Part shown: in pieces, positions 18,502-62,756 of the stretch
How positions within the stretch are numbered: the stretch's first letter is position 1
Layout: every line of letters begins with the position of its first letter
Assembly (NCBI GenBank): GCA_021604105.1
Contig: BQIW01000005.1
Coordinates: 12,621 to 76,620 of the forward strand
Origin: Nitrospirales bacterium
Lineage (GTDB): Bacteria; Nitrospirota; Nitrospiria; Nitrospirales; UBA8639
DNA length: 64,000 nt
Direction of reading: 5' to 3'
Notes under the pieces: generated by a model
Told to the model about the DNA's origin: nothing
The model's input: only the letters and a program-made list of their open reading frames with translations
Database searches by the model: none
Program-made: the position numbers and the translations under genes

Positions 18502-18873
18502 TTATGGGAGTAAGGACCGCCCAACAATCTGACGGATCCAGGCTAACCACCATGTTTTCCTCGTTTCAAGGGGAATCTCGGGATCAGGATATTCCACCCA
18601 CAGCTCCTGATTCCCAAGATACTGCTCCCCAATAAAGATACGTTGGGTTCGTAATTGCCGATAGCCCCTCTCATGTAACACGTGTATGAGTCCTTGCAGA
18701 ACCTGGTCTTCGGTAGGAACGGGATCAACATCTATCTGAAGCGATTCATAGCGGAGCCGAGCCTGGAATCCTCCTTCACAGGGAATAACATGGACTTGCC
18801 GATTGAACCCACGGTCACGGTCATCCAACCCGGCAACGTGATAAATATGGATGGAAGGAGATGTGGAACTCAT
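18502..18873 (-). CDS. hypothetical protein
   Basis: 123-aa ORF with ordinary composition. I recognise no family and see no clear SD. Confidence 0.35.
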   Translation of the reverse strand: MSSTSPSIHIYHVAGLDDRDRGFNRQVHVIPCEGGFQARLRYESLQIDVDPVPTEDQVLQGLIHVLHERGYRQLRTQRIFIGEQYLGNQELWVEYPDPEIPLETRKTWWLAWIRQIVGRSLLP

Positions 18874-19113
18874 ACGTGTAAAGGTCTATCATACCTCCGT
18901 TTGTTATCATCGCATAAGAGGAAAAAGGCCGTCGAGCCTTCGGAGCCACTTCCAGCTCTTTCGCCTTCGCACACAAATTCTCTTCAGAACTCAGCATGTC
19001 TTCTTCAAAAAGCCGGCGTCCTCGACTGACAACATAGAGCATCAATTTCCGCTGATTCCTCTTGCCTTCACCGGCGTGCTTTTCGTATCGTGGTACTCAA
19101 TGATTGTGACTGA

Positions 19114-46315: not shown

Positions 46316-47704
46316 TCAAGAGTCAGGGATTTTCTTGAGCCGGCGGTCCAACGCAAAGCGCGTAATGCCAAGGTATTTAGCAGCGAGACTTTTATTATTA
46401 TCAGATACCCGCATGACTTCTTCAATCAAATCGCTTTCAATGCCCGCAAGAGTTTGCTCTCCGAGAATCATTTCCATGCGCACCACCTGTTGATCCCCTC
46501 GAGTGACCGCATTGACCGAGGAACGTGCCACTTCATGAACTTCACGAGGCAAATCCCCTTCCGTCAAGCTTTTCCCACGACAAAAAATAGCCGCACGCTC
46601 CATGATGTTTTCCAGTTCACGAATATTTCCCGGATAGGGATAGCGCTCCAACAGCCGTTGGGCTTCCGGCTCAATTGCCGTAACCTCTTTACCAAGATCA
46701 CTGCTTTGTCGAATCAACGTCGCAAGAGCCAGAGGGATAATATCCTCTGTCCGATCCCGTAATGATGGGAGATTCAAGGACACCACATTCAGTCGAAAGA
46801 ACAAGTCCTCCCGGAATCTGCCTTGCGACACATCTTTACGCAGATCCCGATTGGTGGCCGCAATCAGACGAAAATCCACCTCAATATCCTCCTGCCCACC
46901 CAACCGTCTAAACGAACGCTCTTGTAATACTCGAAGCAATTTCGCTTGCATTGAAGGATTAAGGTCTCCAATCTCATCTAAAAAGAGCGTCCCGCCTTCC
47001 GCCTGCTCACAGAGGCCGGGTTTGCGCTGGTTGGCCCCCGTGAAGGCCCCACGCTCATAGCCAAACAATTCACTTTCAAATAATTCCTGAGGAATGGCTG
47101 TGCAATTGACCCCAACAAACGGACCTTTGTCCCGGGGGCCGTTATGATGAAGGACTCGAGCGACAAATTCTTTCCCTGTTCCTGTCTCTCCAAACAGAAG
47201 AACCGTCGTTTTCAAATTTTTGGCCATTTCCTGAATTTGCCCGACCAATTCTTTCATACTGGGACTATTGGCAATCAAACTGTTGAAGGCGTACCGACCG
47301 GGTCTATCCTGCGTTTCAAAGTCGATACGGCGCCGGAGGGTCAGATAGTCCAATGCGCGATCGATCACAGGCTCTACACTGGAGAAATCGACGCTTTTAA
47401 TCAGAAAATCATAGGCTCCAAGTTTAATGGCCTCCACCGCATCCTCCACCGTGCCATAGGCCGTAAGGAGAATAACCAGGGACTGTTGAGATTTCGCACG
47501 AATTTGCTTGAGCGTCTCCAGTCCGCTTAACCCGGCCATTTTTAAATCTAATAAAATTAAATCTGGCATATCATGATCAAGGGCTTCCAATAAGGCTTCC
47601 CCCGAAGTAAAGCTTCGAACATGATGGTGTCGTTTGGCGATCCGCCGGCTGATGGCCTGGCGAACCACATCATCATCATCCGTAACAAAAATGTTAGCGC
47701 GCAT
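46316..47704 (-). CDS. NtrC-family sigma54-dependent response regulator (copy 1, canonical)
   Basis: REC domain (DLILLDLKM), Walker A GETGTGKE, GAFTGA, FREDLFFRLN, and a C-terminal Fis-type HTH. Confidence 0.9.
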   Translation of the reverse strand: MRANIFVTDDDDVVRQAISRRIAKRHHHVRSFTSGEALLEALDHDMPDLILLDLKMAGLSGLETLKQIRAKSQQSLVILLTAYGTVEDAVEAIKLGAYDFLIKSVDFSSVEPVIDRALDYLTLRRRIDFETQDRPGRYAFNSLIANSPSMKELVGQIQEMAKNLKTTVLLFGETGTGKEFVARVLHHNGPRDKGPFVGVNCTAIPQELFESELFGYERGAFTGANQRKPGLCEQAEGGTLFLDEIGDLNPSMQAKLLRVLQERSFRRLGGQEDIEVDFRLIAATNRDLRKDVSQGRFREDLFFRLNVVSLNLPSLRDRTEDIIPLALATLIRQSSDLGKEVTAIEPEAQRLLERYPYPGNIRELENIMERAAIFCRGKSLTEGDLPREVHEVARSSVNAVTRGDQQVVRMEMILGEQTLAGIESDLIEEVMRVSDNNKSLAAKYLGITRFALDRRLKKIPDS

Positions 47705-47707
47705 CGA

Positions 47708-49633
47708 TTACACCGTTGGGAGTTGGGGTTGGCATACACAAGGAAGCCACCATGTCATGGTGGTCCCAATACCTGACTGACTTTCCGCATGAATCTCTCC
47801 TCCATGGGCTTCAATGATATTTCGACAAATGGGCAATCCCAGTCCGGTTCCACGATGCTTGCCGGTGGTAAAAAACGGTTCAAAAATCCGAGGAAGAGCA
47901 CTTGAACTGATTCCCTTTCCATTATCTTTGACTGTAATACGCAGCCCCGGTGTTCGTTCAATGGTTTCCTCTTCCAGGGACAGAGATAGACATCCTTCCT
48001 CCGACATCGACTCAACGGCATTCTGGATCACGTTGAGTAATACTTGCTTCAATTGATCCCGATCTGCTTGGATGGAATCCAGATTGGGAGGCGAATGGAA
48101 ATCGATTTGAATCGCCTTTTGTTTTATGGGTTCATTGAGGACCTGCAAAGATTCCAGTATCAGATCTCGTAATTGAAAGGTCACCGGGAGCAGGTCTCTT
48201 GGTCGCGCAAAGTCAACAATTTGGTTCACAATGCGATCCAGTCTCCGGGTTTCCTTGAGAATGGTTACAAGATCATCATGCCGGGAATCACCATCAGGAA
48301 AATCTTCCATCAGCAACGTCGTGGTTGATCCAATCCCCACCAGCGGATTTCGTATTTCATGGGCAATACCTGCAGCCATTTGTCCTAATGTAGCCAATCG
48401 GTCAGATCGGTTCAATTGTGCACGCATATGCTCCAAAGCCGTGATATCCACATTAAATCCCTGGTACACCATGGTCTGCCCACCGTGGTCTTGAATCGGA
48501 ACCGCCCGACATAAGACCTTGCGAACAGCACCGTCCGGATGCAGGAAGCGAAGAACCCGCTCAAATGGCTCACTCTGGTGGCAGGCATCCTGAAACGTTT
48601 CACGCACCCCCGCTCGATCGTCCGGATGAATGGCTTCCCACATATGTTCAGGATCTAACACCTCATCGGGATTCCTCCCAGCCAAAACCCAATTCTGCCG
48701 GTTGCTAAAAATCAGATGATCCTTTTTTGCCGTGAATATTCCGATGGGCGCATAATCCACAATCCCTCGATATTTAGCCTCAGAAGAGGTTAAATCCTGA
48801 TTCAGTGTCCGGAGTTCCTGTTCCGATTGTTCAATACGCCGGATATGATTTCGGATTTGGGTACCCATAGTTTGCATGACTTTCGTCAATTCGCCAATTT
48901 CATCGTCCCGTTGGAAAACGGGGATATTCGGAATATTCCCCCCGGAAACATTTTCAACGGCTTTAACCAAGGTTGTTAATGGTCCTGTAATGGACCGTGC
49001 AATGAGATGAAGAGGCACCAACAATAAGATCAATGCCAACGACCCTCCCCACACGACCACTCCCATCAGGGCCGCTCGGTCTGCCGCGCTACTACCAAGG
49101 GCGTGTTGCAATTGCGTGACTTCCCGCCGGTCAAATCGAGCCATTTCCTCACGAATCGCCAGCATGAGGATACGACCTTTTTCACTCTCGACATAGTCCG
49201 TGGCCTCTTGTGGATACCCTGCTTTGACCCGATCAATCAACCGATCTTTGTCATTCATTAATTGTTCGACCATTCCTTGAACGGTTTCGATTACCTGTCG
49301 CTGATCTTCAACAGACTTGACCATCTGTCTCAATGAATTCCCGAGTAACAGGACTCGTTGCCTGGCTGCCAAATACGGCTGCAAAAATGGGGCTTTTTGT
49401 GTCAGAATAAACCCGCGAAACCCAGTTTCGAGGTCCACAACTAAGCGCATATATTCAGCCGACGCGCTTTGCACCAGATACACCTCATTAAGACGATCTT
49501 CATCCAGAGAAAACGTCTGAACGCTTCTATAGGTCACCAGGCTCAAAATTAAGACGGCCAGAACGGGGACACCAGAGACTAAAAGAAGCTTCCTGGCAAT
49601 TGGAAGATTTAAAAAAAGTTTATTGAGAGACAT
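47708..49633 (-). CDS. sensor histidine kinase: CHASE3-HAMP-PAS-HisKA-HATPase
   Basis: N-terminal TM plus a CHASE3-like segment (ETGFRGFILT), a PAS domain, an H-box (AAGIAHEIRNPL) and N/G boxes. It ends 4 nt before the regulator gene. Confidence 0.9.
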   Translation of the reverse strand: MSLNKLFLNLPIARKLLLVSGVPVLAVLILSLVTYRSVQTFSLDEDRLNEVYLVQSASAEYMRLVVDLETGFRGFILTQKAPFLQPYLAARQRVLLLGNSLRQMVKSVEDQRQVIETVQGMVEQLMNDKDRLIDRVKAGYPQEATDYVESEKGRILMLAIREEMARFDRREVTQLQHALGSSAADRAALMGVVVWGGSLALILLLVPLHLIARSITGPLTTLVKAVENVSGGNIPNIPVFQRDDEIGELTKVMQTMGTQIRNHIRRIEQSEQELRTLNQDLTSSEAKYRGIVDYAPIGIFTAKKDHLIFSNRQNWVLAGRNPDEVLDPEHMWEAIHPDDRAGVRETFQDACHQSEPFERVLRFLHPDGAVRKVLCRAVPIQDHGGQTMVYQGFNVDITALEHMRAQLNRSDRLATLGQMAAGIAHEIRNPLVGIGSTTTLLMEDFPDGDSRHDDLVTILKETRRLDRIVNQIVDFARPRDLLPVTFQLRDLILESLQVLNEPIKQKAIQIDFHSPPNLDSIQADRDQLKQVLLNVIQNAVESMSEEGCLSLSLEEETIERTPGLRITVKDNGKGISSSALPRIFEPFFTTGKHRGTGLGLPICRNIIEAHGGEIHAESQSGIGTTMTWWLPCVCQPQLPTV

Positions 49634-49948: not shown

Positions 49949-51589
49949 TTACTTGGATAAGATAGTATCAGCCATAAATACAGGAATCCCGTGATTTTGA
50001 TGGTCTTCTGCAACAGCCCGCACATGATGGGTCAGGATCCCCTGTGCATAGTACGCTTCCGTCACCGGTTGCAATAGCACATACACAGCCAGGAGCCCCC
50101 CGATTGTCATGGTGACCGTATACGGAAGCGCCATCCACACCATCCGGCCATACGAAAGACGGATAAGGGGGGCGAGAGCGGACGTCAATAGAAAAAGAAA
50201 GGCCGCCTGCCCATTAGGAGTGGCCACACTGGGAATATTCGTCCCCGTGTTAATTGCCACCGCCAAAAGATCAAATTGATCCCGGGTAATCACTCCCTGG
50301 TGAAATGCCTGCAGCACCTGTTCAATATAGATCGTGGCAACAAAAACGTTATCGCTGATCGCCGACAGGAAGCCGTTGACAATAAAAAACATGCCGATTT
50401 GGTCATCTCCATCCATACCTAAAACAAAATGAATAATGCTTCCGAAAAGTTGTTGCTCCTGGATCACCGCTACGATCGAAAAAAACACTACCAGGAGGGC
50501 CGTGAACGGGAGAGCTTCTTTGAAGGCCTCCCCCAACTGATGCTCCTCAATAATGCCATTCAAGGCCGTCACTCCCACGATGACCGATAACCCAATTATG
50601 CCCACTTCCGCCAAATGGAAAGCCAGAGCGACAATTAACCAGATCATAGCCAGCCCCTGGACGATTAACCGGGCTTTACACCGATGATCCATCTTTTGAG
50701 AGGTCTCCTGGTCAAACCGCCAAAGAATATCCCTGACGGCTGGGGGAAGACGAAATCCATATCCAAACCATCGGAATCGTTCAACCAAAACACAAGTCAG
50801 GAATCCCACAATCAACACCGGAATGGTCACAGGAGACATGCGAATAAAGAATTCCATAAAATTCCACCCCGCCTTCTCTCCGATCAACAGATTTTGGGGT
50901 TCTCCGACCAAGGTGCAGACACCTCCGAGTGCAGTTCCAACCGCCCCATGCATAAGAAGGTTTCGTAAAAACCCTCGAAACTCCTCTAAATTCGAGCGAT
51001 GGAGGGTGCCAACCCCATGATCCAGTGTATGATCATAATCATCCTGAATACCTTTCCCTGAAGCCACCCGATGATACACTTTGAAAAACCCCACGCCCAC
51101 GGCAATGATGACTGCCGTCACGGTGAGGGCATCCAGAAATGCGGACAAAAATGCTCCCATTCCCGCAAAAAGCAGAGCCAGTGTCGTCTTTGATCTGACC
51201 TCGAGTAGGACCTTCGCAAAAACAAACAACAACAAATCTTTCATGAAGTAAATTCCGGCCACCATGAAAATCAGAAGGAGGATGACCTGAAAATTATTCA
51301 ATGCTTCGTGGTAGACGGTTGCTGGTTTTGCCAGTCCGATCAGCACCGCTTCAAGGGCCAGCAAACCACCGGGTTGCAGAGGATAACTCTTCAACGCCAT
51401 TGACAAGGTGAAAATAAATTCAAGGACGAGGCACCAGCCCGTCACAAAGGGGCCGACGGTATACAATAAGCAGGGATTAATAATGAGGAAGGCGAGAATT
51501 GTCCCCTTGTACCACCTCGGGGCATGGTCGAGAAAATTTTGTTCAAATGCACGAAGAAAAAGTAACACCGGAATACACAATCTCCACAA
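49949..51589 (-). CDS. nhaB: NhaB-type Na+/H+ antiporter (copy 2)
   Basis: 546 aa. It shares long identical blocks with copy 1, e.g. [19 protein letters not shown] and [31 protein letters not shown]. Confidence 0.85.
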
Positions 51590-51625: not shown

Positions 51626-53425
51626 CTAGCTTACCGTTAAAGCCGGTTCTTTGTGGGCTTGTAGCCCAACCTCTACGGCCTTCTTTTCCACGATCTGCAT
51701 AGCGTTATCCAACGCCTCATTAAAATGTGTGCAGATATAGTCGTCCTTCAGTCTGGAAAGTTCATTTAAATCGCCAAGAACCTGTCGGGTTCGAGGGGAC
51801 ATGCCGGCTGTTAACACTGCCACCCCGCGACTATTAGCAGCTTCAATTAAGTCTCCTAACGCGTAAGCCCCCGACAAATCCAATTCATCCAACCATTTGC
51901 AACGAATGATGAGCACATCTTTGCTGTCAAGAAGTTCCACCGTCTCGTTCAACCAATCGATCGCACCGAAAAATAACGGACCGTGAGGACGGACGATGAT
52001 AATCCGATCTCGAACGATATGCTCAAAACGACCGCTGAGCTCTCCCATATTAGCCCCATTCTGGCTGATTTTTCTGGCATAATCCCTGGCGAAGGAAAAA
52101 ATGAGGTCTTCTTCTTCCTGTTTCACATCCTCATCCCGTTGACTGAGATCCGCTTTATAGCGATCAGACTGGTCTTTGACAAACCGGAAAAACGCCACCG
52201 CGAGTCCCATCGCCATGGCGGACAATAAATTCCAAAATACGGTCATGAAGACCACGAGTCCAAATACCATCAAATCAGAGGTCGGCAATCTTCGAACCAC
52301 CGGCAGAACTCGCATATCCAGAATGTCATAGCCCGCCTTGAGGAGAATACCCGCCAAGGCGGAGAGAGGAATGGATGCGGCCAATGAACCCAGACCAAGA
52401 ATGAACGAAAGCAGAACAAGCCCCATCGTAATGGACGATAAACGGGTTCGTGCCCCACTCTGAATATTCACCACACATGGCATCGTATTGGTAGCTCCCC
52501 CTAATCCTCCAACCAAACCCGAAAAGAAATTGGCTGATCCTTGGGCGACCAATTCCCGGTCACTATTGTGATGAGTTCCGGTCATATTATCGACAATAAG
52601 ACAAGTCAGGAGGCTATCGAATATACATAATCCAGCAAGAGCCGCAGCCGGGACGAAGGCTTTTTCTAGAATGTCGAGATTGGGAAGATACAACTCAGGT
52701 AAGCCGGTGGGAATATCTCCGATTTTAGGGATGTCCAGCCCCAGCACGACCGTGGTTATCGTACCGGCAAATAAGCCTATTAACGGGCCTGGCAACCAAG
52801 GAACAGGAGAAATTTTTGGCCAAACAATGACAAAAAGTAAGGTCAACACCCCGATTCCTACTGCCACAGGGGATGCATGGGCCAAACTTGAGGGCAATTC
52901 CGTTATAGCGGACGTAATACTCTTCACGCCGGGAAGCCCCAAAAACGGATTGAGTTGAAGCAACATATACAACACACCCAAACCCGTCATAAATCCCGAG
53001 ATGACTGAATAGGGCGTAAACTTGATAAATTGGCCGAGCTTTAATAATCCCAACACAATTAAAATAAAGCCGGTTAAGGCGACAGTCGTGAAAACGAAAA
53101 CCAGATCGGGACTCCCATCGGCCAACTTATTGGTTTGAGTCATGGAAAGGATTTGAATGGTCATCGGTCCTGTCGGCCCACCTACTGACCACGCTGACCC
53201 ACTGAGTGGACCCGCAATAAGACCGGCCGCCACTGCCGACCACATGCCTGCAATCGCCCCGATCCCGGAAGCCACTCCGAAGGCCAGGGCCATGGGAAGC
53301 ACCACCATCGCCACCGTGATTCCCGCCAACACATCCCCCCTCACATTGCTGGCAATCCCTTTAAAGTTTTCTTTGAAATTAAAATCTTTAAGATATTCCC
53401 CAATACCCGCAGTCAGGTGCTCCAT
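51626..53425 (-). CDS. SulP-family anion transporter with STAS domain (copy 2)
   Basis: SulP signature (LPMALAFGVASG...GPTGPM) and a C-terminal STAS domain. I prefer the ATG at 53425 because GGAGG lies 9 nt upstream; the track start at 53455 lacks an SD. Confidence 0.85.
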   Translation of the reverse strand: MEHLTAGIGEYLKDFNFKENFKGIASNVRGDVLAGITVAMVVLPMALAFGVASGIGAIAGMWSAVAAGLIAGPLSGSAWSVGGPTGPMTIQILSMTQTNKLADGSPDLVFVFTTVALTGFILIVLGLLKLGQFIKFTPYSVISGFMTGLGVLYMLLQLNPFLGLPGVKSITSAITELPSSLAHASPVAVGIGVLTLLFVIVWPKISPVPWLPGPLIGLFAGTITTVVLGLDIPKIGDIPTGLPELYLPNLDILEKAFVPAAALAGLCIFDSLLTCLIVDNMTGTHHNSDRELVAQGSANFFSGLVGGLGGATNTMPCVVNIQSGARTRLSSITMGLVLLSFILGLGSLAASIPLSALAGILLKAGYDILDMRVLPVVRRLPTSDLMVFGLVVFMTVFWNLLSAMAMGLAVAFFRFVKDQSDRYKADLSQRDEDVKQEEEDLIFSFARDYARKISQNGANMGELSGRFEHIVRDRIIIVRPHGPLFFGAIDWLNETVELLDSKDVLIIRCKWLDELDLSGAYALGDLIEAANSRGVAVLTAGMSPRTRQVLGDLNELSRLKDDYICTHFNEALDNAMQIVEKKAVEVGLQAHKEPALTVS

Positions 53426-53515
53426 TCCTAATTTCCTCCGACTCAATCCTCTCATTCGTCATCGCCTGGCAAAGAAGGTACACGTGCGCCTTTAAAATCC
53501 ATAGAAAATTTCATC

Positions 53516-53531
53516 CGCAACTTACATGCCA
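53516..53531 (-). promoter_or_regulatory. sigma54-type promoter candidate for sulP2-nhaB2
   Basis: Minus strand reads TGGCAT-GTAAG-TTGCG (GG-N10-GC), 60-105 nt upstream of the two candidate start codons. Confidence 0.55.
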
Positions 53532-53647
53532 ATAATACAGCAGATGGGGTTCGACAAAGATTTTTTTATTTTCCTTTATAACTTCCACAATATCTGCGTA
53601 GAAATCCCGTCCCAACTATAAATAGATTCCTCTGGGTAAGACTCGCT

Positions 53648-53661
53648 GTGCGAAATCGTAC
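53648..53661. promoter_or_regulatory. 14-bp near-palindromic upstream element (putative enhancer-binding-protein site)
   Basis: GTACGATTTCGCAC in gene orientation. A second ATTTCGCACAG copy lies 24 bp further upstream (53670-53680). The centre is ~122 bp from the -24 GG. Confidence 0.5.
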
Positions 53662-53777
53662 GGTGTGCCCTGTGCGAAATAACTCCCGTTACGGCATGAA
53701 CAGAGGAAGGGGATTTTTCCCATTATCGGAAAGTTGAAGGAATGGGAAAGTGAAGCCTATCAGGACTTAATGAGGAA

Positions 53778-55169
53778 TTAGAATGTCAATGTCGCCATGG
53801 TATAGACATAATTGACATCGGCTGTCCCAGGGCTTTGTGGCACTCGATCAAAATAGGAGCCTTTGAAAAAACGGGTATATCCTACTTCAAATACCGAATG
53901 TCGGAAATACCCTGCCTGAGGAGCCCACGTTATGGAGGTATCCAACATGTTGCCAAGAAAAGTGCCCGCTCGACCGGTCGGATCCTGCAGACCGCTACCC
54001 ACAAACGGGCCGCGGCCATCAGCCAGCCAGAAGGTGCGATGAGACACCATCAACCTGACTGTGGAGATCGGTTGGAGTGTCGAGCGAAACCCAATAGGTG
54101 AAAAAATATTGGATGGAAAGATGATGCCCAAAATTCCGGTTGGTCCATATTCTGCCCGGCGTTTGGCAAACAAGAAATCAAAATTCTTTTTCGGGTTCCT
54201 GTCTCCGGACGCATAGTCAAACAGATAGACGAAACGTAAGGGCCATTCGGTCGCAAAACTATAGCCCACCTCTCCGTGATGTCGATGTGCAAAGAGATTC
54301 GTATGATCGACCTCTCCAACCTGGTAGATCGATTCTATCTCGTAATCGAATTGTTCTTTCGCCGGCTTGGCAAACACACGAAATCCCATGGTGGAAAGAT
54401 TACGTTTTTGCAGGTTACTCCCCTCATTCAACTGAAAATAATATAACTCCCCATTCGCCCAGGGAACATGGCGGCTGGAAATCGCCGCACCGGAAAAGTA
54501 GCTAATGGGGCTAGTCCAATCCGGGCTGACGGTATGACGTTGGACCGGTCGTGTGACAAATACCCGGAGCCCCCAATCAGAGGGTTTATCTCCCCCAAGG
54601 GTCAATTGCACCCCATCAAATGATGGCGTAAAGCTTCCAAACCGATGCCCTGCCACAAGACGTCCTTTCCCAAAATCCATGATCAACCGGCCGACCTCAA
54701 ATTTGCCGGAACTTCCTGTTCCCAAAAAATTCTGCGACACCAGATCAAGATGGAGTTGAAAAATATCCAGATGATCGACAAAATTGGGATTGTGATCCTG
54801 CCCCCGATCAGCTACAGGGGCCCGAAAATCTGCGAGTTCCAGCGTGAATCGAATAGGGTCCCAAATATCCTTAATTCCCAACAAAATCCTCGTCCGCTGC
54901 GCAACCATCTGATTACTGCCTGCTGTGCCTTTCGTAAAACTTTGATTAAACGTTTCATAGCGGGTTCGATGTTCTACTCCCAAATCCAACCATTCCGGTG
55001 TCAGAGCAGAAAGAGTATTAGGCTGTCGCAAAACAGTTTTCAAGCGATCAAAGTCACTCGGGAATTCTTTCGTATGAGTTCCATTTCCAGCCCCATGAGC
55101 AGGGTTTTGTACTGACTGGACTCCAAGCAAGAACAGGAGGCTCAAACAAACGACTCCAGATTTTTTCAT
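53778..55169 (-). CDS. outer-membrane beta-barrel, alginate-export (AlgE)-like porin family
   Basis: Signal peptide from the ATG at 55169 (GGAGA SD), alternating beta-strand pattern, an HRTRYE motif near the N-terminus and a C-terminal ...TLTF aromatic end. Confidence 0.6.
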   Translation of the reverse strand: MKKSGVVCLSLLFLLGVQSVQNPAHGAGNGTHTKEFPSDFDRLKTVLRQPNTLSALTPEWLDLGVEHRTRYETFNQSFTKGTAGSNQMVAQRTRILLGIKDIWDPIRFTLELADFRAPVADRGQDHNPNFVDHLDIFQLHLDLVSQNFLGTGSSGKFEVGRLIMDFGKGRLVAGHRFGSFTPSFDGVQLTLGGDKPSDWGLRVFVTRPVQRHTVSPDWTSPISYFSGAAISSRHVPWANGELYYFQLNEGSNLQKRNLSTMGFRVFAKPAKEQFDYEIESIYQVGEVDHTNLFAHRHHGEVGYSFATEWPLRFVYLFDYASGDRNPKKNFDFLFAKRRAEYGPTGILGIIFPSNIFSPIGFRSTLQPISTVRLMVSHRTFWLADGRGPFVGSGLQDPTGRAGTFLGNMLDTSITWAPQAGYFRHSVFEVGYTRFFKGSYFDRVPQSPGTADVNYVYTMATLTF

Positions 55170-55464
55170 CGTATCTCCATACACAACCAAAGCAAACCAT
55201 ACTAATTTTCATTTTCAATAATTTCCTATTCACCTACTTGGGCCACGCAAAACCAATACCAAGTTCCAGATATTGAGGAATCTGCACGAGGCATTGAAAA
55301 AGCACAACGAAATACCATGGTTCCCTGCTCCTTACAAAATGTCTGAATCCTTAGGTTGGAGTGATGCCGTTGATTCCGATTAATTTTCAATATTGGGTGT
55401 GCGTCGGTATCAGATTTTCCCCTGACTACTGGCTTCATGCACAGTGGCCATCACTTGAAAAAAG

Positions 55465-55478
55465 GTGCCATTTCACAC
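55465..55478. promoter_or_regulatory. copy of the 14-bp upstream element
   Basis: GTGCCATTTCACAC, with a weaker TCATCGCAC half-site 24 bp downstream (55494-55502). Confidence 0.4.
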
Positions 55479-55634
55479 ACGACCTCCTGTGCATCATCGC
55501 ACGCCAGCTGAGTTTGTTCGGCAGTTTCCCGCAAACCTTTGGATGAGGAGGCAACGGCTAACAGTGCGGAACCGAAGGATACTATTGTCCTCGCTTAATA
55601 GGTTGAGCATGCTTAAATTATTAGGGAAAATCTG

Positions 55635-55649
55635 GGCATGCCCTTTGCT
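55635..55649 (+). promoter_or_regulatory. sigma54-type promoter candidate upstream of the second NtrC-family gene
   Basis: GGCAT-GCCCT-TTGCT (GG-N10-GC; the base before GG is G, not T), ~280 nt before the ATG at 55926. Confidence 0.35.
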
Positions 55650-55925
55650 GTCTACTTTACAACATGAGGCCATGCCTCTTCCTGGAGAATGGTTCATTGG
55701 AGTGGAGATCCTCGGAACCTCTGTCCTCACACCTATCCAACACCCCTTGGATACAGGACAATGGCCGGGGGCTCTTTCCAATGAGTCCAGCAAAAAACAC
55801 TCATACCGTATAAAAGATTACCGGTTCTCCGAATTTTTCTGCAGTTGATATCGATGACCAAAGATGGGAAAGTACCATGAAATGGGGGCACAACTTCTTT
55901 ACTGATCTACAAGACAGGGAATGCT

Positions 55926-57314
55926 ATGCGTGCAACAATTTATGTGACCGACGATGATCAAAACGTGTGTTCCGCGTTAAGTCGCCGGTTGGTAAAAAAA
56001 GGGCACCTCGTGAGAAGCTTTCATTCAGGACCCTCGCTCATTGAGGCCTTGGAACATGAACTTCCTGATTTGCTGTTCCTGGATCTTAAAATGCCGGAGA
56101 TGGATGGACTCGAGACCTTACGACACATTCGACAAAAGATCCCGAAAACCCTGATTGTCATGTTGACCGCTTATGGGAGCGTGGAAGATGCAGTGGAGGC
56201 GATGAGGCTCGGAGCTTATGATTTTCTGATTAAATCCATTGATTTCTCAACGGTTGAACCAGCCTTACATCGCGCCATTACCTTCCTGGAGCTAAGGCGT
56301 CGGATTGAGTTTTCTGCTTCTGAGAAACAACGGCAATATTCCTGGGAACATGTCATCGCCAGGAGTCCAGCCATGTCCAAGGTTATCGAACAACTCAAAT
56401 CTTTCGACGCTCAGGACGTCCCCTTAGTGTTTTTTCAAGGGGAGGTTGGGACGGGGAAAGAATTCTTGGCACGTATTCTTCATTATAATAGCCACCAACA
56501 GCTCGGCCCGTTTGTTACGGTCAGTTGCAACGAACAGAGGGGATCACTCCTTGAACCTCAATTATTTGGATATGAACGGGGAGCATTTAGTGGTGCCAGT
56601 CAAAGCATGCCGGGAGCATTTGAACATTCCGACGGGGGAACCCTATTTATTGATGAGATTGAACATCTGTCAATTCCCATTCAGGGATCATTGGCGGAGG
56701 CGATTCGTACTCGTGCATTTTGTCGAATGGGAGGTTTTGACCGCCTCCCCATCAAAAATCGACTTGTGGTAACCAGTGCGATTCCACTGGATCAACCGGG
56801 CCACCAGGAAATATTTCATCCAGAGTTACGTTCTCTACTCGAAAAACAACAACTCTTTATTCCTCCCCTCCGAGAACGGAAAGAAGATATCATCCCTTTG
56901 GTGATCAAAACCATTCACGCCTATGGTGAAGAAATCGGCCGTCCAAAACTCGATATTGATTCTTCGGTACCTCCACTTTTGGATACGTATCAATTCCCGG
57001 GAAATATTCGAGAATTAGAGGCCATGATTCGCAGGGCGGTATTATGCTCGCAGGGACCTGTCCTTACTTCACTGGACTTTTATTCTCAACATCCTGGCGG
57101 CGGAGAAGGTCTCTCTCCAAATACCGGTCGGGTTCTTTTTGAAATCGGCCAACACAGTCTACAGGACATCCAAGTCATGGTGATTGATGAAGTCTTGCGA
57201 TTCACCAAACAAGACAAAGAACAGGCAGCTGGCTATCTACACATTTCTACACAGGCACTGGATGAACATATTCAACTACGGAAAAACTTCTCCCCTGTGA
57301 CAGAGAGGTCCTGA
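55926..57314 (+). CDS. NtrC-family response regulator paralog (copy 2) with divergent AAA+ C-terminal motifs
   Basis: REC domain (DLLFLDLKM), Walker A GEVGTGKE, GAFSGA and Walker B LFIDEI. VVTSAIPL and FHPELRSLLE replace the AATNRDL and FREDLFFRLN seen in copy 1. A C-terminal HTH is present. Confidence 0.8.
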   Translation: MRATIYVTDDDQNVCSALSRRLVKKGHLVRSFHSGPSLIEALEHELPDLLFLDLKMPEMDGLETLRHIRQKIPKTLIVMLTAYGSVEDAVEAMRLGAYDFLIKSIDFSTVEPALHRAITFLELRRRIEFSASEKQRQYSWEHVIARSPAMSKVIEQLKSFDAQDVPLVFFQGEVGTGKEFLARILHYNSHQQLGPFVTVSCNEQRGSLLEPQLFGYERGAFSGASQSMPGAFEHSDGGTLFIDEIEHLSIPIQGSLAEAIRTRAFCRMGGFDRLPIKNRLVVTSAIPLDQPGHQEIFHPELRSLLEKQQLFIPPLRERKEDIIPLVIKTIHAYGEEIGRPKLDIDSSVPPLLDTYQFPGNIRELEAMIRRAVLCSQGPVLTSLDFYSQHPGGGEGLSPNTGRVLFEIGQHSLQDIQVMVIDEVLRFTKQDKEQAAGYLHISTQALDEHIQLRKNFSPVTERS

Positions 57315-57673
57315 GAGAAGGAGCCGACATTTCCTCCATTCATTCGTTTTTCCATTGTGGCGCATTCTTTCCAGGGTAAGTTCCTCCATGCTCCTTAAAA
57401 GGACTTTATGCATTTGACAGGCAGTTATCTGGTCCTCATCGACTGTTGTAAACACTTTCACTCTAGCTTTCCTTTCACATTTTCCTCAAAGCTCTCAACT
57501 GAATAGTGCCTAAGAGCTTCTGAACAAAGAATCTTCCTTACCAGAAGCCCCCGAATATTCCGCCTGGGAACCATTCTTTGACAAGTTCAATAGAGCGATG
57601 CATTGGTCTAACTATTATCCTCACCTGAATCCAAGCACATATAGTTCAAGAAATTTTTAGCACAGTTCACCTG

Positions 57674-57687
57674 GTGCGATTTCACAC
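57674..57687. promoter_or_regulatory. copy of the 14-bp upstream element
   Basis: GTGCGATTTCACAC, with a TTTTAGCACAG half-site 24 bp upstream. The centre is ~100 bp from the -24 GG at 57781. Confidence 0.55.
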
Positions 57688-57779
57688 CCCTTCCCTTCCG
57701 CCACGTTGTCGAGGGAAAAGAAAATATCAATAAATCCAAGAAATTCCGTGCTTTTTTCAAAAAAAACCGAATTAAGGAC

Positions 57780-57795
57780 TGGCACTTCTTTTGCT
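57780..57795 (+). promoter_or_regulatory. sigma54 promoter (perfect consensus)
   Basis: TGGCAC-TTCTT-TTGCT, 60 nt upstream of the ATG at 57855. Confidence 0.7.
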
Positions 57796-57854
57796 CTTTC
57801 TGTATTAGGAACCTTCCACTTTCCGAACACTCATCGAATAGGGAAAATGCACCA

Positions 57855-58622
57855 ATGCCGATTCTTTCAGCACCCCTTTCTTCTTCAACCGAAACACCTC
57901 CAGGGTCCTTCAATTTCAAGAAAACATTGGAACGGAATTTTCCAGGAGCCTACCCCTCCGATGCCTTCGTGGATTATTCCCAATTCCGGTTGCACCCCTT
58001 TGGCATGAATCAGAAAAACTCAATCGCCTGTGTGAGCGTGTGTCGGGACGAGATAGCCACCCCCTTCATGAACAGACTGCATCATGCCTGGAATGGAGTA
58101 TTTAACTTTTCAAGTCTGGCCGGAATGCTGTACCTGGGTATAACGGGATTTCAAGCCGCCCATCATCATGCACCCAATACTGATGCCAGAGAAAAATACG
58201 TGTATTTTGCCTTTCCCCATATCGCCATCGATGAAAATGGCACTCCCGGAAATTGCCGCCGCACAGGACGCCAAGCCTTGTCCCAAGCTTGCGGCGCATT
58301 GATTAAGATTCTTCAAGACCCACCTCGAGGGGAAGCCAGCTTGAACTTGGATCCAGACGACGTGGAGCAGAGTCTCCTCACCCAACGCCTGTTTAAAAAA
58401 TTTGGATTCGGAGAAATTCCTGATTTGGTCACTTTGACCAAAGGCACCCAACAGATCATCAGAGAAGACCTTGAACGGATGATACAACTAACCATCGATC
58501 CCAGGAGAACCGACTATGCGGTATTTACCGGTATACAAATTCACGGTCCAGCCCATAAGGACTGGATTTGGATTGAAACTTCATATGTTTTCGTTGATGG
58601 GGTAAGAAAACCATTACTGTAA
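57855..58622 (+). CDS. conserved hypothetical; candidate LCIB/LCIC-like beta-carbonic-anhydrase-fold protein
   Basis: 255 aa. Cys63 lies in VCRDE (C-x-D), followed by His122 (FPHIAID) and Cys146. The 59- and 24-residue spacings are close to the Cys/His/Cys zinc triad I recall for diatom LCIB4. The family call is from memory only. Confidence 0.4.
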   Translation: MPILSAPLSSSTETPPGSFNFKKTLERNFPGAYPSDAFVDYSQFRLHPFGMNQKNSIACVSVCRDEIATPFMNRLHHAWNGVFNFSSLAGMLYLGITGFQAAHHHAPNTDAREKYVYFAFPHIAIDENGTPGNCRRTGRQALSQACGALIKILQDPPRGEASLNLDPDDVEQSLLTQRLFKKFGFGEIPDLVTLTKGTQQIIREDLERMIQLTIDPRRTDYAVFTGIQIHGPAHKDWIWIETSYVFVDGVRKPLL

Positions 58623-59277
58623 AAATTAAAATTCTTTTTCCTAAAAAGCCGATTACTTCCTACATCAGAAGGTACCCAGCAAGCTGGGGGGCATCTCTTA
58701 AATGTGTTGTCGAATGACAATTGCGCATTCCTCCCCTCAGCAAGCTGAGGGGTATCCTGCGTTCATTTTATGAACTGAAAAAAAGATCAAGTTAACTATG
58801 AAAGGATGTACCCTGATTCGGCCTATCATTTGGGCGATTTCATCAAGCCCTTAATCGGTCACGTTCCTAATGTAAATGTAGCCGTCACCCAAAAAGTATC
58901 GAACAGTTTCATAGCTACGCAGGTACGAAATGGTGAAATTCATAGGTTCAGACAACTAGCCCAAGGACATCCAATCCACCATTCCTTCGACCTCATCAAG
59001 GTTATATCCAAAAAGATTGGGAAAAAATCCGCAAATGCCCTCACCTGAGGAAAAAGTAATACAGAAGCAGAGATTCTCCACCAGCCACCCCAATAAGCAC
59101 ACACCCAACAATGTCCCACACCTGGCTACCCCAAGACATGGAGAAAGAAAGTCCCTAATAATTTATCAAAAAGCTTATGTTCCAAATCATCATTTTGACT
59201 CTTCTCACCACCCTCCCTTTATAGCCAGTGTGTTTTTAGTTGTTCCTATCCATTTATATCTATTTCTTTCAAAATTA

Positions 59278-59291
59278 GAGCGATATCGCAC
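59278..59291. promoter_or_regulatory. copy of the 14-bp upstream element
   Basis: GAGCGATATCGCAC (the inner GCGATATCGC is a perfect palindrome). The centre is ~125 bp from the -24 GG at 59410. Confidence 0.5.
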
Positions 59292-59361
59292 AGTCATTGC
59301 TTAATAAATCCGCTCGTTTTCATGTATAGAAACGGATCCACTTTTATTCAAGATATACAAG

Positions 59362-59389
59362 TTTATGAATTCATTAATGAATTCATAAA
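59362..59389. promoter_or_regulatory. perfect 28-bp AT-rich palindrome between the upstream element and the sigma54 promoter
   Basis: TTTATGAATTCATT|AATGAATTCATAAA. Confidence 0.6.
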
Positions 59390-59408
59390 TCATCAAAATA
59401 AACCATTT

Positions 59409-59424
59409 TGGCATTTGCCTTGCT
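59409..59424 (+). promoter_or_regulatory. sigma54-type promoter candidate
   Basis: TGGCAT-TTGCC-TTGCT (GG-N10-GC), ~35-45 nt upstream of an AGGAGA SD and small ORFs. Confidence 0.55.
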
Positions 59425-59462
59425 TTTTATAGATCACAAGAGATCAAAAAAATCTTAGGAGA

Positions 59463-59528
59463 ATGATCCCAATGGAAGGTTTTACTCTTATTTTACTTAT
59501 CACCTGGGCCGTACTTTCGAGGTTCTAA
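59463..59528 (+). CDS. candidate 18-21-aa hydrophobic peptide
   Basis: AGGAGA at 59457-59462, with an in-frame ATG at 59472 (9-nt spacing). It encodes M(IPM)EGFTLILLITWAVLSRF. Confidence 0.3.
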   Translation: MIPMEGFTLILLITWAVLSRF

Positions 59529-59529
59529 C

Positions 59530-59604
59530 ATGGAACATGTCCCTCTTATCGCAATTTTGACTTTCATAGTCATTGCATTGATGAACCGTTTGGGTTTGGA
59601 TTAA
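59530..59604 (+). CDS. candidate 24-aa hydrophobic peptide
   Basis: GAGGT lies 6 nt upstream of the ATG, which starts 2 nt after the previous stop. It encodes MEHVPLIAILTFIVIALMNRLGLD. Confidence 0.3.
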   Translation: MEHVPLIAILTFIVIALMNRLGLD

Positions 59605-59821
59605 ATCCCGCACCCTCTTCGGTTTTCCTGATTCTTTACTGCACGTGGTTTGCTCTTCGCCCATCGTCCAATTGCCCTAGCCACAACTTTAGGTTTTTTC
59701 AAGAGAAAGAGTATGAGGTCTTGTGGATCTCCTGCTATAGTTTTGTATAACTCATACTCAAGCAATGGGTGAACTGTAAGCAAGAAAGATGGTATGCAGG
59801 CCTACAAGTCAGGTTAAATTT

Positions 59822-60397
59822 ATGACTCGTCAGTTCTTTTTCATACTCCTTTTCTCTATTCTCATTTCCCTGGGAATTGGTGTGGGTATCGGAGGCCAAC
59901 TTGCACCACAGGAAGGCATGCCTATCCGTGTGGTCGCAAACTATTTACACGCCGTTCTTCAAGCAGACCGGACCTTTTACACCCAACATGTCGTGGAACG
60001 GATGGAAGATATGCTTATTGTGACCGCAACGGAAAATTGGCGGGAAGAACGGACATTGCCTTTGCCCGCACAATTTTTTAAAGAAGCCTCCCGTGGATTA
60101 CAGGTTTCCGGCAAACCATTTCGATATCGGTTGATGGGTCTTTGGCCATTGAATCCCGAGAATGCGCCTCACAATGCCCGTGAACGTAAAGCCCTGGAGC
60201 AAGTTGTGGAATATGGAGAAGTGACTGATCAAGAAATCCAGATAGAGAATCAGTCTTATTATCAAGCTATTTTTCCTGATCGGGCGGTGAGCCGAGCCTG
60301 CATCAACTGCCATAATGCCCATAAGGACAGTCCCAAACGGGACTTTAAATTAAATGATGTCATGGGAGGACTGGAAATTTTAATTCCCCTTAACTAA
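59822..60397 (+). CDS. DUF3365 (Tll0287-like) c-type haem sensor-domain protein
   Basis: Signal anchor from the ATG at 59822 and a single C-terminal CxxCH (CINCHNAHK) followed by ...DVMGGLEILIPL, as in DUF3365. Confidence 0.7.
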   Translation: MTRQFFFILLFSILISLGIGVGIGGQLAPQEGMPIRVVANYLHAVLQADRTFYTQHVVERMEDMLIVTATENWREERTLPLPAQFFKEASRGLQVSGKPFRYRLMGLWPLNPENAPHNARERKALEQVVEYGEVTDQEIQIENQSYYQAIFPDRAVSRACINCHNAHKDSPKRDFKLNDVMGGLEILIPLN

Positions 60398-60575
60398 CCT
60401 CCCCGGTAGCAAAATTTACAGCCCATTTCGGCCTCCTTATTTTTCCCGCAATCTTATTCATTGTTTCCTCGTTATTCTTTTGAAAACCTACTTCACTTCC
60501 CACTTGACGAAGAACGGTGTGATAGAGTGAGATCCCCGCCCAGTTGGGCTTCATCTTTTTCCTAGGGCACGCTCA

Positions 60576-61346
60576 ATGAGACTTGTTCACGGGCTACAAT
60601 TCAACAACCTCTGCCGTGATATCTATGGAGGGATGGTTCACGCAGTCGTGGCCCTACCATTGGCGTCGCTTTAGGCGTGGTTTCTGGTCTAGGAGCCTTT
60701 GCCGGTTTATACGGGGCTATAGTTGTCGGATTTATTGCCGCGCTTTTCGGAGGTATCCCCGCTCAGGTTTCCCGCCCCACGGGCCCCATGACTGTGGTGA
60801 TGGCCGTAATCGTCACAATCTTCGCAGAGAATCCTGGTTTGATCCTGATGGCCGTGATTCTTGGTGGTGTCTTTCAAATCCTGTTGAGAACTTCCAGGGA
60901 GGGACAGTTCATCGCGTTGGTCCCGTATGCGGCTGGCTCGGGATTCATGAGCGGCATTGGCTATGTCATTCTCATTTTGCAATTGAGTCCTCTGGTAGGC
61001 CATGCCGCCAGACCTGAGGGTGTAGTCGCGATGCACAAGGCATTCAAGGAATTTATGGAAACCCGGTGGGGGATGCCACCCTTGCAGGGGTCCTTATTTT
61101 GGCCATTATGTATCCATGGTCCGACCTTTGGAAACCGTTCCGGGCTTTAATACAATTTCTGGCGTTGTTTTGGATTTATCCAAAGTCCCAACTATTGCCG
61201 GGACAGAGGCCCTGGATGGATCGGGAGGACTGGTGCAAATTCGGCCTGACCATGGTTTTGCCAGCCGGTTGAAGGCCCTGCAGAAAGGTTCCTTGGTAGA
61301 AGGAGCGATCCGAGTGACCAATCACGCCCCCTCGGCATCAAATTAG
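60576..61346 (+). pseudogene. decayed SulP-family transporter gene (frameshifts plus large internal deletion)
   Basis: Three reading frames together spell SulP1-like segments. They are MRLVHGLQFNNLCRDIYGGMVHAVVALPLASL*, then GLGAFAGLYGAIVVGFIAALFGGIPAQVSRPTGPMTVVMA...SGFMSGIGYVILILQ, then GDATLAGVLILAIMY, then the STAS-like ISGVVLDLSKVPTIAGTEAL. About 350 aa of the TM core are missing. Confidence 0.75.
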
Positions 61347-61379
61347 ATCTTCCTGCGACTCCCGGAGAAGAACTGATTT

Positions 61380-62756
61380 TTGGACACCAAAAATTGGGTA
61401 ATTAGAAATATGCACGAAACATCTATCCAGACCATCTTTGGTTTCTCTCCACTTTGGATAGCTACATCAATTTTAATATTGACCTATGCCGTCATTATTG
61501 CTGAACGGTTTAACCGGGCAATTGTGGCGCTTCTTGGAGCCACTGCCATTATTGGAACAGGAGTCCTCACGCAAGACCAAGCGATTCAAGGCATTGATTT
61601 CAATACCATCGGCCTACTCACCGGCATGATGATCCTGGTCGGAATTACCAAAGAATGCGGCATCTTTCAATTTCTCGCGATCAAAGCCGCGAAGGCAGCC
61701 AAGGGTAGTCCGTGGGGTATCCTCGTTATGCTCTCAATTGTCACCGCAGTGCTCTCGGCATTATTAGATAATGTCACGACGGTGCTGTTGGTCGCCCCGG
61801 TTACCTTGCTCATTGCAGACGAACTGGAAATCAGTCCGTATCCTCTGCTATTCGCAGAAATCAACGCCTCAAATACAGGTGGTACCGCGACGCTGATTGG
61901 AGATCCTCCCAACATTATGATCGGCTCGGCTACCAGTTTGACGTTTAATGATTTCGTGATTCATCTGACTCCCCTCGCCATTGTTGTCTTTAGTGCGACC
62001 CTTATTTCACTTTGGTTTATCTATGGAAAAACCATGTTCGCGTCCCCCGAAGCCCGATCCCGCATCATGGCGTTTAACGAATATGAGGCCATTCGGGATG
62101 TTGGCCTACTAAAATATTGTCTTGTGGTCTTTAGCCTGGTTATTCTCGGGTTTATCCTGGCCCATTCGATAGGTATGGAACCCGCCACCATTGCTCTGGG
62201 TGGCGCCGCCCTGCTCCTGTTACTCTGCACATTTTCCCTAAACATCGAACAAGCAGGGCATAAAGTTCATACCATGTTTGGACAAGTGGAATGGATTACC
62301 ATTTTCTTTTTCTGCGGCTTGTTCATTATCGTCACCGGCGTGGAACATACCGGTCTTTTACAGTCCATTGCAGATTGGACAGTAAGTCTAACCGCAGGAA
62401 ATTTCACGGTTACCACCCTGGCTATTCTTTGGGTTTCGGCTATTCTTTCATCAATCGTCGACAACATTCCATTTGTAGCCACGATGATTCCTATGATCAA
62501 AAGCATGCTCCCGGTCTTTCAACAAGCGGGTATTCCGCTTGAACAGGCCAAGTCCCTTTGGTGGGCATTATCGTTGGGCGCATGCTTAGGAGGAAATGGG
62601 ACACTGGTGGGAGCCTCAGCCAATTTGATTGTGGCGGGGATTGCGGAACGCAATGGCGTGCCATTTCGATTTCTACCATTTTTCAAAGTGGCCTTTCCTC
62701 TGATGATCCTACAAATACTGCTCAGCACCCTTTACATTTGGATGAGGTATTTATGA
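61380..62756 (+). CDS. ArsB/NhaD-superfamily (citrate-transporter-like) permease
   Basis: ~450 aa, polytopic, with LLDNVTTVLLVAPV and GGTATLIGDPPNIMIG motifs typical of this superfamily. The start is TTG 61380 or ATG 61410. Confidence 0.75.
   Translation: MDTKNWVIRNMHETSIQTIFGFSPLWIATSILILTYAVIIAERFNRAIVALLGATAIIGTGVLTQDQAIQGIDFNTIGLLTGMMILVGITKECGIFQFLAIKAAKAAKGSPWGILVMLSIVTAVLSALLDNVTTVLLVAPVTLLIADELEISPYPLLFAEINASNTGGTATLIGDPPNIMIGSATSLTFNDFVIHLTPLAIVVFSATLISLWFIYGKTMFASPEARSRIMAFNEYEAIRDVGLLKYCLVVFSLVILGFILAHSIGMEPATIALGGAALLLLLCTFSLNIEQAGHKVHTMFGQVEWITIFFFCGLFIIVTGVEHTGLLQSIADWTVSLTAGNFTVTTLAILWVSAILSSIVDNIPFVATMIPMIKSMLPVFQQAGIPLEQAKSLWWALSLGACLGGNGTLVGASANLIVAGIAERNGVPFRFLPFFKVAFPLMILQILLSTLYIWMRYL

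Follow-up and report, generated by a model that had tools for sequence, protein, structure and literature searches.

We analyzed a window of 64,000 nucleotides (the whole stretch of DNA under study: positions 12,621 to 76,620 of contig BQIW01000005.1, assembly GCA_021604105.1) from a Nitrospira-type genome with 49% G+C, in which a 14-bp palindrome recurs upstream of sigma-54-type promoters. The palindrome has the dyad form (T)GTGCGA-N2-TCGCAC(A), and a half-site ending in TCGCAC lies exactly 24 bp from it at all four promoters named in a preliminary description of this DNA, namely those of a SulP-type transporter gene (sulP2), an NtrC-family response regulator gene (response regulator 2, RR2), an LCIB-type carbonic anhydrase gene, and a pair of very short open reading frames (micro-ORFs) followed by a Tll0287-like gene. 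The half-site is promoter-distal at sulP2 and LCIB and promoter-proximal at RR2 and at the micro-ORF/Tll0287-like promoter. The sites are listed below, where L001-L014 and L109 denote related loci compared with the window (L015-L094, used further on, are metagenome contigs).

53648-53661, minus strand: full palindrome of the sulP2 promoter, GTACGATTTCGCAC in gene orientation, conserved in L002-L011
53672-53685, minus strand: promoter-distal half-site ..ATTTCGCAC of the sulP2 promoter, 24 bp from the palindrome
55465-55502, plus strand: tandem sites GTGCCATTTCACAC-N10-GTGCATCATCGCAC between the divergent porin and RR2 promoters (palindrome 55465-55478, half-site 55489-55502)
57650-57663, plus strand: promoter-distal half-site ..TTTAGCAC of the LCIB promoter
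57674-57687, plus strand: full palindrome GTGCGATTTCACAC of the LCIB promoter
59278-59291, plus strand: full palindrome GAGCGATATCGCAC of the micro-ORF/Tll0287-like promoter
59302-59315, plus strand: weak promoter-proximal half-site AATCCGCTC; CGCAC/TCGCAC occurs at the same +24 offset in L005, L009, and L010

All four 14-mers originally reported are present where they had been placed, and the reported position of the sites, 100-165 bp 5' of a GG-N10-GC element, is borne out by center distances of 100.5-163.5 bp (measured from the motif center to the first G of the -24 GG). The second half-site had been noted at three promoters, where we recovered it; the weak one at 59302-59315 adds a fourth. 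The window contains the following sigma-54-like promoters.

53516-53531, minus strand: sigma-54 -24/-12 element TGGCATGTAAGTTGCG of the sulP2-nhaB operon, 124.5 bp from the motif center
55634-55649, plus strand: sigma-54-type promoter GGGCATGCCCTTTGCT of RR2, 163.5 bp from the motif center
57780-57795, plus strand: sigma-54 promoter TGGCACTTCTTTTGCT of the LCIB gene, 100.5 bp from the motif center
59409-59424, plus strand: sigma-54 promoter TGGCATTTGCCTTGCT of the micro-ORF/Tll0287-like genes, 125.5 bp from the motif center
55247-55261, minus strand: fifth sigma-54-type promoter TGGTATTGGTTTTGC, before the porin gene, conserved in L002-L008 and L010
41301-41316, minus strand: sixth promoter TGGCATTGAAATTGCT, which matches the sigma-54 consensus perfectly and precedes a gene (39505-41118) for a di-haem peroxidase-like protein

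The motif had been described as lying upstream of all four sigma-54 promoters; those four do carry it, but the window holds six such elements. The fifth stands before the porin gene, which places the tandem site at 55465-55502 between a divergent pair of promoters, as an enhancer that porin and RR2 would share. No GTGCGA-type site was found upstream of the sixth, which is presumably part of a different regulon and has an imperfect repeat, TTGAAC..TCTCAA, about 120 bp upstream. This correction makes the idea of a regulon stronger. Among the related loci, the L109 equivalent of the porin element, TGGTATTAGACTTGCT, fits the relaxed consensus TGGYAY-N5-TTGCW exactly, and the equivalent of the RR2 promoter is weaker in L009-L011 (GAGTAT..TTGC).

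Agreement with the motif consensus GTGCGAWWTCGCAC, which was derived post hoc from the four window sites, exceeds expectation at both levels of stringency examined. With at most one mismatch, three sites were observed against 0.04 expected, a number reached in none of 2000 Markov-1 shuffles of the window; with at most two mismatches, five were observed against 0.68 expected. A weight matrix trained solely on sites from other genomes and then run on the window ranked the four sites at the top (20.6-22.3 bits), above both the next match (11.2 bits) and the maximum of a null of 40 shuffled windows (19.0 bits). The earlier statement that the window has no further full match holds insofar as all lesser matches score within the null range, with the qualification that one extra two-mismatch match exists at 47486, inside the RR1 coding sequence (RR1, response regulator 1, is the second NtrC-family regulator of the window). 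This match and three other candidate members, at 37560 upstream of dabA, 38382, and 61233, were rejected, having null-range scores and no nearby sigma-54 element; regulon membership of dabA, mpsC, and the peroxidase gene is likewise not supported. The 35-bp blocks upstream of sulP2 and LCIB do match at 24 of 35 positions as reported (27 of 38 over a longer block), and the 38-bp pairing is the top non-self match of the block in the window, with a runner-up of 23/38. A hairpin or terminator reading of the palindrome is unlikely given its 6-bp stem, 2-nt loop, and lack of a T-run, and scans for terminators and sigma-70 consensus elements gave no more matches than shuffled sequence.

Conservation was assessed in eight syntenic Nitrospirales loci retrieved via the LCIB-like gene, whose close relatives all belong to the Nitrospirales, and in four more diverged loci retrieved via RR2 homologs (62%-71% identity). 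The motif is retained upstream of orthologs in these 12 other loci, the check that had been proposed for it. In the intergenic alignments, where mean column identity is 60%-66%, the sites and the -24/-12 elements form invariant islands, kept even where RR2 is only 62%-71% identical, and the distance from site to promoter is conserved promoter by promoter. Across 16 Nitrospirales loci, 57 of 71 motif matches with at most two mismatches are located 60-260 bp ahead of a sigma-54-like element, a zone making up 6.7% of the sequence, in a count whose matches are not independent, many of the sites being orthologous. Deviations from the consensus are themselves conserved at particular promoters (GTACGA at sulP; GTGCCA..TCACAC and GTGCAT..TCGCAC at RR2; GAGCGA at the micro-ORF/Tll0287-like promoter), which suggests tuned affinities.

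The same architecture is found at promoters unrelated to those of the window. In L109, a gene for an SbtA-family bicarbonate transporter is preceded by a palindrome with a half-site at 24 bp (7490-7527) and a sigma-54 element (7366-7381, minus strand). In L013, the tandem sites GTGCGATTTCGAAC-N10-GTGCAAACATGCAC (18984-19021) stand in the same 24-bp register upstream of a gene for a GAF-type sigma-54 activator, with a sigma-54-like element at 18734-18749 (minus strand). This activator gene adjoins nxrAB-like genes (molybdopterin and Fe-S subunits), which hints at possible cross-talk of the predicted circuit with the control of nitrite oxidation. Beyond these loci, a single exact-pattern search of metagenomes for motif plus promoter returned 94 matches, of which 80 loci were examined; these range from 44% to 71% G+C, only six are orthologous Nitrospirales loci, and 21 of the 80 carry an NtrC-family enhancer-binding protein gene, although some of the matches are likely due to chance.

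That the similarity among the sites reflects chance, or the shared ancestry of duplicated promoter DNA without function, would be compatible with a consensus drawn after the fact from four sites and with related genomes that are in part near kin (83%-95% protein identity). Chance is nonetheless rejected because of the shuffles and the weight matrix trained on other genomes, and both variants are contradicted by the island-like conservation amid variable flanks, distant genomes included, by the recurrence of the architecture at the sbtA and GAF activator genes, and by the enhancer-binding protein genes among the metagenome loci. We consider this explanation extremely improbable.

Three regulatory genes of the window come into question as parts of a system acting through these sites.

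46316-47704, minus strand: RR1, a canonical REC-AAA+(GAFTGA)-helix-turn-helix (HTH_8) activator, the proposed motif reader
47708-49633, minus strand: histidine kinase 1 (HK1), a CHASE3-HAMP-PAS histidine kinase and presumed RR1 partner, which adjoins RR1 in L009, L010, and L012-L014
55926-57314, plus strand: RR2, with REC and a weak sigma-54 AAA+ domain, a degenerate RR1 paralog proposed as target and modulator

RR1 has all the parts of an enhancer-binding protein: its AAA+ domain is complete (PF00158, 233 bits) and contains GAFTGA, and HTH_8 is matched with 42 bits. In an alignment of 77 sequences, nearly every position of its HTH region shows at least 95% column conservation, and the recognition helix (ITRFALDRRLKK, or [IL]TRFALDRRLKK) shows no change among the 10 diverse orthologs inspected (67%-96% identity). 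In L013 and L014, where no RR2 gene lies closer than 10 kb, HK1-RR1 is oriented divergently to Tll0287/SulP/NhaB or CitMHS operons, and the sigma-54 elements of these operons are preceded at 80-95 bp by the motif variants GAGCGAATCCACAC and GAGCGAATTCACGC. A recognition helix of the form R[FY][AST]L was present in 7 of 13 distinct motif-adjacent regulators with a readable C-terminus as opposed to 3 of 84 background enhancer-binding proteins (Fisher P = 1.3e-5; two of these three are RR1 orthologs), where the background, consisting of the closest diverse enhancer-binding proteins, is biased toward RR1 relatives and adjacency is not the same as binding. Because of its intact domains, invariant helix, synteny with the motif without RR2, and the enrichment of its helix type beside the motif, we favor RR1 as the reader: RR1 is probably the binder of the palindrome, and RR2 a target and possible modulator. 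The best NCBIfam matches of the regulators (AtoC, NtrC, and ZraR) are all far under their cut-offs, and no orthology to a characterized regulator can be claimed.

Self-driven NtrC-type regulators occur beside the motif in the metagenome contigs L037, L044, L061, and L067, and a recurrent soil group of contigs shares an identical promoter arrangement (GTGCGACCTCGCAC, 98 bp, TGGCATCGATTTTGC). Judging by these occurrences, the motif may mark a widespread, uncharacterized subfamily of enhancer-binding proteins. The downstream genes in the metagenome contigs are heterogeneous (PxpA-like, universal stress protein, efflux components, CobA-like, and MFS transporter genes, identified by eye from translations, some of the open reading frames being clearly spurious), and we do not claim a common downstream function outside the Nitrospirales.

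RR2 and RR1 are mutual closest paralogs (44% identity). Orthologs of RR2 retain the REC domain, Walker A (GEVGTGKE), GAFSGA, and sensor II, whereas sensor I has changed from ATN to TSA and the arginine fingers from FRxDLxxR to FHPELxxL (FHPELRSL in the window); among 38 aligned sequences (the window protein and 37 orthologs), the sensor I/arginine-finger region is not conserved. Walker B reads DE in the window and DG in several orthologs. A ring made of RR2 only, devoid of both arginine fingers and of sensor I, is unlikely to hydrolyze ATP. RR2 has no Pfam HTH_8 match, and its putative recognition helix is variable and without conserved arginines (ISTQALDEHIQL, VSPQTLEEQLRL, VLPDSLDEKT-stop), while the DNA motif is invariant. 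Five orthologs (P0033, P0034, P0037, P0040, and P0041) end before the HTH, several of those lacking the DNA-binding domain being 392-402 aa long with DG in Walker B, and L109 has kept an intact tandem site and porin promoter beside such a truncated RR2.

These features bear on the possibility that RR2 itself reads the palindrome, autoregulating its own gene and activating its neighbors. In its favor, the RR2 gene invariably adjoins the best-conserved tandem site and is next to the LCIB and micro-ORF/Tll0287-like promoters; the protein has kept REC, Walker A, the GAFSGA loop, and sensor II; and in L011 and L109 no other NtrC-type gene occurs less than 10 kb from the sites. A reader with a variable helix missing conserved basic residues, no recognizable HTH_8, and neither arginine fingers nor sensor I is nonetheless hard to reconcile with an invariant motif that persists next to an ortholog stopping before its HTH, and we regard this explanation as improbable.

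In another alternative, both paralogs act at the sites: RR1 would supply DNA binding and arginine fingers, RR2 would join mixed rings, and the motif would be the platform of a hetero-oligomeric or product-damped activator. RR1 and RR2 are each other's closest paralogs, L009, L010, and L082 each contain the two genes, and in four pairs of RR2 and RR1 clusters the longest contig has the same length for both members, which suggests that these share contigs. Moreover, the GAFSGA loop and REC domain of RR2 are under strong constraint whereas its catalytic residues are not, and of the tandem sites the most elaborate is the one at the RR2 promoter. Paralogous enhancer-binding proteins that interact have been documented in other systems, as for RedR1/RedR2 (PMC10084136). 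Against this, L013 and L014 carry RR1 and the motif without a nearby RR2, and RR2 is therefore not needed for the site to exist. We consider joint action of the two regulators unlikely, if still worth bearing in mind.

The reading we prefer, and hold to be likely on the evidence of sequence comparison, is that the dyad with its 24-bp half-site is the upstream activating sequence of a sigma-54 two-component circuit, in which RR1 would be the reader and five promoters the targets; binder, activating effect, and signal are predictions here. HK1 would phosphorylate RR1, dimers of which would bind the tandem sites via the Fis-type helix and then form an ATPase ring; through DNA looping, the ring would open sigma-54 holoenzyme complexes at the promoters of sulP2-nhaB (possibly reading into HK1-RR1), porin, RR2, the LCIB-type carbonic anhydrase, and the two micro-ORFs with the Tll0287-like gene behind them. 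The divergent porin and RR2 promoters would both be served by the tandem site at 55465-55502, and RR2 would be a target of the circuit and probably a modulator, through mixed rings or competition for phosphoryl groups, rather than a reader of the motif. The output would be inorganic carbon uptake and conversion with Na+ cycling. The original proposal of an upstream activating motif that is read by a local NtrC-family activator and defines a local regulon, a prediction from sequence, agrees with every available computational test.

The genes that would be controlled in this way are the following.

51626-53455, minus strand: SulP/STAS anion transporter (sulP2), best NCBIfam match BicA with 337 bits against a cut-off of 880
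49949-51589, minus strand: NhaB Na+/H+ antiporter
53778-55190, minus strand: Alginate_exp-family outer-membrane channel (porin)
57855-58622, plus strand: LCIB-type (theta/beta-like) carbonic anhydrase homolog (PF18599 LCIB_C_CA, 174 bits against a cut-off of 25)
59472-59528, plus strand: micro-ORF A, MEGFTLILLITWAVLSRF, 18 aa, with AGGAG ahead, the first gene after the 59409 promoter
59530-59604, plus strand: micro-ORF B, MEHVPLIAILTFIVIALMNRLGLD, 24 aa
59789-60397, plus strand: gene of a Tll0287-like (haem PAS-like) protein, about 365 bp downstream of its promoter

Taken together, the BicA-like SulP protein, NhaB, the LCIB-type carbonic anhydrase, the outer-membrane channel, and SbtA in L109 suggest a set of genes for inorganic carbon uptake with Na+ cycling. 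For Nitrospira, genome context has led to the proposal that BicA cooperates with a Na+/H+ antiporter, NhaB (10.1101/2020.03.05.977850). An alternative functional reading of the predicted circuit is a response to alkaline or Na+ stress.

The last transcription unit had been described as a haem sensor operon. Its promoter and motif stand, but two conserved, hydrophobic micro-ORFs come first, directly after the promoter, and the Tll0287-like gene follows only after the distance given above. Neither micro-ORF matched a Pfam family (A was searched as a 21-aa form from an upstream ATG at 59463), and a search for RNA elements in the long leaders gave no Rfam match with E <= 0.1 within 53300-61500. 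The 18-aa peptide is found behind motif and sigma-54 promoter in L001-L007, L009-L011, L059, and L109, with extra copies in L002 (11032, with its own motif and sigma-54 element) and L003 (10897). In L011 (4880-4893) and L109 (753-766), a lone site GTGCGATTACGTAC with ..AATCGCACAG nearby lies between two divergent sigma-54 elements, one of which drives the 18-aa micro-ORF; the other, in L011, faces a universal stress protein gene.

Several observations weigh against RR1 as the reader or against the circuit as outlined. A 24-bp spacing does not correspond to an integral number of turns of the helix. The enhancer-to-promoter spacers are 53%-74% A+T, and a scan for the integration host factor (IHF) consensus WATCAANNNNTTR between sites and promoters found it essentially absent, with only one 1-mismatch match, at 59364 (micro-ORF/Tll0287-like promoter); an IHF site or an intrinsic bend is frequent in this position but not required. 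In L012, an RR1 ortholog (83% identical) is encoded beside a Tll0287-like gene, yet only a half-site-like remnant is present, and conversely L011 and L109 keep the motif with no RR1 gene found within 10 kb. A second HTH type (GIDRRKLYRLLEK, helix IDRRKLYRLLEK) also occurs beside the motif in metagenome contigs, and the mapping of helix to motif is accordingly not exclusive, to which the biased background of the helix comparison must be added. The inorganic carbon reading, for its part, is built on family names, with SulP2 well under the BicA cut-off.

Some of these points would be expected if the association of the palindrome with RR1 and RR2 were coincidental and its true binder were the product of a gene elsewhere, be it an unlinked enhancer-binding protein or a repressor. 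Besides the second HTH class and the two loci without a nearby RR1, it is in keeping with this explanation that half-sites of the GTGCG type serve other enhancer-binding proteins, such as DctD of Rhizobium, whose site is TGTGCGgaaatCCGCACA (TGTGCGG-N4-CCGCACA; PMC11077940). In every other Nitrospirales locus that was examined, however, HK1-RR1 is found in synteny with operons that carry the motif, and helices of the RF type are enriched beside the motif; a repressor in particular would sit poorly with the -100 to -165 position and the tandem layout, which suit an activator. An unlinked regulator is in our estimation very unlikely, slightly more so than RR2 as the reader, and the circuit with RR1 remains our preferred reading.

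In its tandem layout, the arrangement resembles, by analogy, the enhancer sites of NtrC/DctD-type activators. The nearest match is the DctD site, which is built of the same pentamers, GTGCG and CGCAC in dyad symmetry, though these stand two bp further apart in DctD (6 nt, as against 4 nt in the window motif). Both systems have two sites of unequal quality side by side about 100-150 bp upstream of a sigma-54 promoter, a REC-AAA+-HTH response regulator (in the window, the predicted binder) with a sensor kinase, and a transporter gene as target. They differ in that the second element in the window is a half-site at a fixed 24 bp, the window regulators reach no NCBIfam equivalog cut-off for DctD or any other regulator, and the targets are SulP, NhaB, carbonic anhydrase, and porin genes, with no dctA in the locus.

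NtrC binds sites of the form TGCACC-N5-GGTGCA, and NorR binds GT-N7-AC. As at the glnAp2 promoter for NtrC and the three-site norVW enhancer for NorR, multiple dyads upstream of a -24/-12 promoter would nucleate oligomerization of an AAA+ activator, and one enhancer can serve divergent promoters; site sequences, signal, and regulon are different. The palindrome was not found in a paper on the Desulfovibrio sigma-54 regulome or in the other literature searched. Known regulators of CO2-concentrating mechanisms, namely the LysR-type CmpR and CcmR/NdhR of cyanobacteria and CbbR of proteobacteria, are sigma-70-dependent and sense metabolites. Coordinate control of BicA/SbtA-type bicarbonate transporters and associated functions would be common to these and to the window, whereas control in the window would be by a sigma-54 two-component system in an organism with the reductive tricarboxylic acid (TCA) cycle.

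Degenerate or partnered enhancer-binding proteins include FlgR and CtcC, which lack the DNA-binding domain, and HrpR/HrpS. Like these, and like RedR1/RedR2 and VpsR, RR2 belongs to the NtrC family but departs from its canonical build, having lost the arginine fingers, sensor I, and in many cases the HTH. VpsR lacks the residues needed for sigma-54 contact (PMC6158489), whereas RR2 keeps the contact loop GAFSGA and loses catalytic residues, the opposite pattern. The upstream element is of a well-known type and in itself ordinary enhancer biology; the regulon is undescribed, and the degeneracy of RR2 and the micro-ORFs are less ordinary. A wider model would place inorganic carbon acquisition in Nitrospira under a sigma-54 enhancer circuit with two accessories, one being a self-induced, catalytically dead RR2, often without a DNA-binding domain, that would enter or damp the activator ring, and the other a strongly conserved 18-residue membrane peptide, made first from one of the promoters, that may feed back on the CHASE3 kinase. 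We offer this model tentatively, as a possibility that is rather less likely to be correct than not.

Nitrospira are the dominant nitrite oxidizers of soils, waters, and treatment plants. Recent surveys only list their transporters and carbonic anhydrases (PMC13147460), and the use of sigma-54 in Nitrospira has been reported for nxr operons (PMC7522533); we found no report of sigma-54 control of bicarbonate transport or uptake genes in Nitrospira in the literature searched. If the wider model holds, it would provide the first described regulator of the carbon-concentrating toolkit in a nitrite oxidizer using the reductive TCA cycle, working on a principle unlike the LysR-type control of cyanobacteria and proteobacteria. 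The prediction supplies a defined operator, five promoters, a kinase-regulator pair, and a candidate modulator, and additional candidate members have emerged in sbtA, universal stress protein genes, and the regulator next to nxr. The putative link between RF-type helices and GTGCGA-N2-TCGCAC across phyla could moreover help to assign sites to an orphan subfamily of enhancer-binding proteins.

Some further features of the locus and its relatives may be recorded. The Tll0287-like gene is followed by a SulP remnant and by genes for a CitMHS transporter and a CBS protein. The remnant (60583-61150, plus strand) is N-terminal, consists of two overlapping frames of 144 and 157 aa, and covers only positions 25-162 of the Sulfate_transp model; a SulP fragment of similar length recurs in related loci, and it may be a decayed paralog or a short SulP-derived protein. 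In L014 (2962-3107), GAGCGAAATCGCAC and a perfect sigma-54 element lie between a SulP gene and mpsC/dabA, facing a 51-aa open reading frame convergent with mpsC. The 650-bp spacer that separates the LCIB gene from the enhancer after it is poor in open reading frames, varies widely in length among related loci, and contains a short direct repeat (CAGCAAGCTGGGGGGCATC / CAGCAAGCTGAGGGGTATC) at 58640-58760 on the plus strand.

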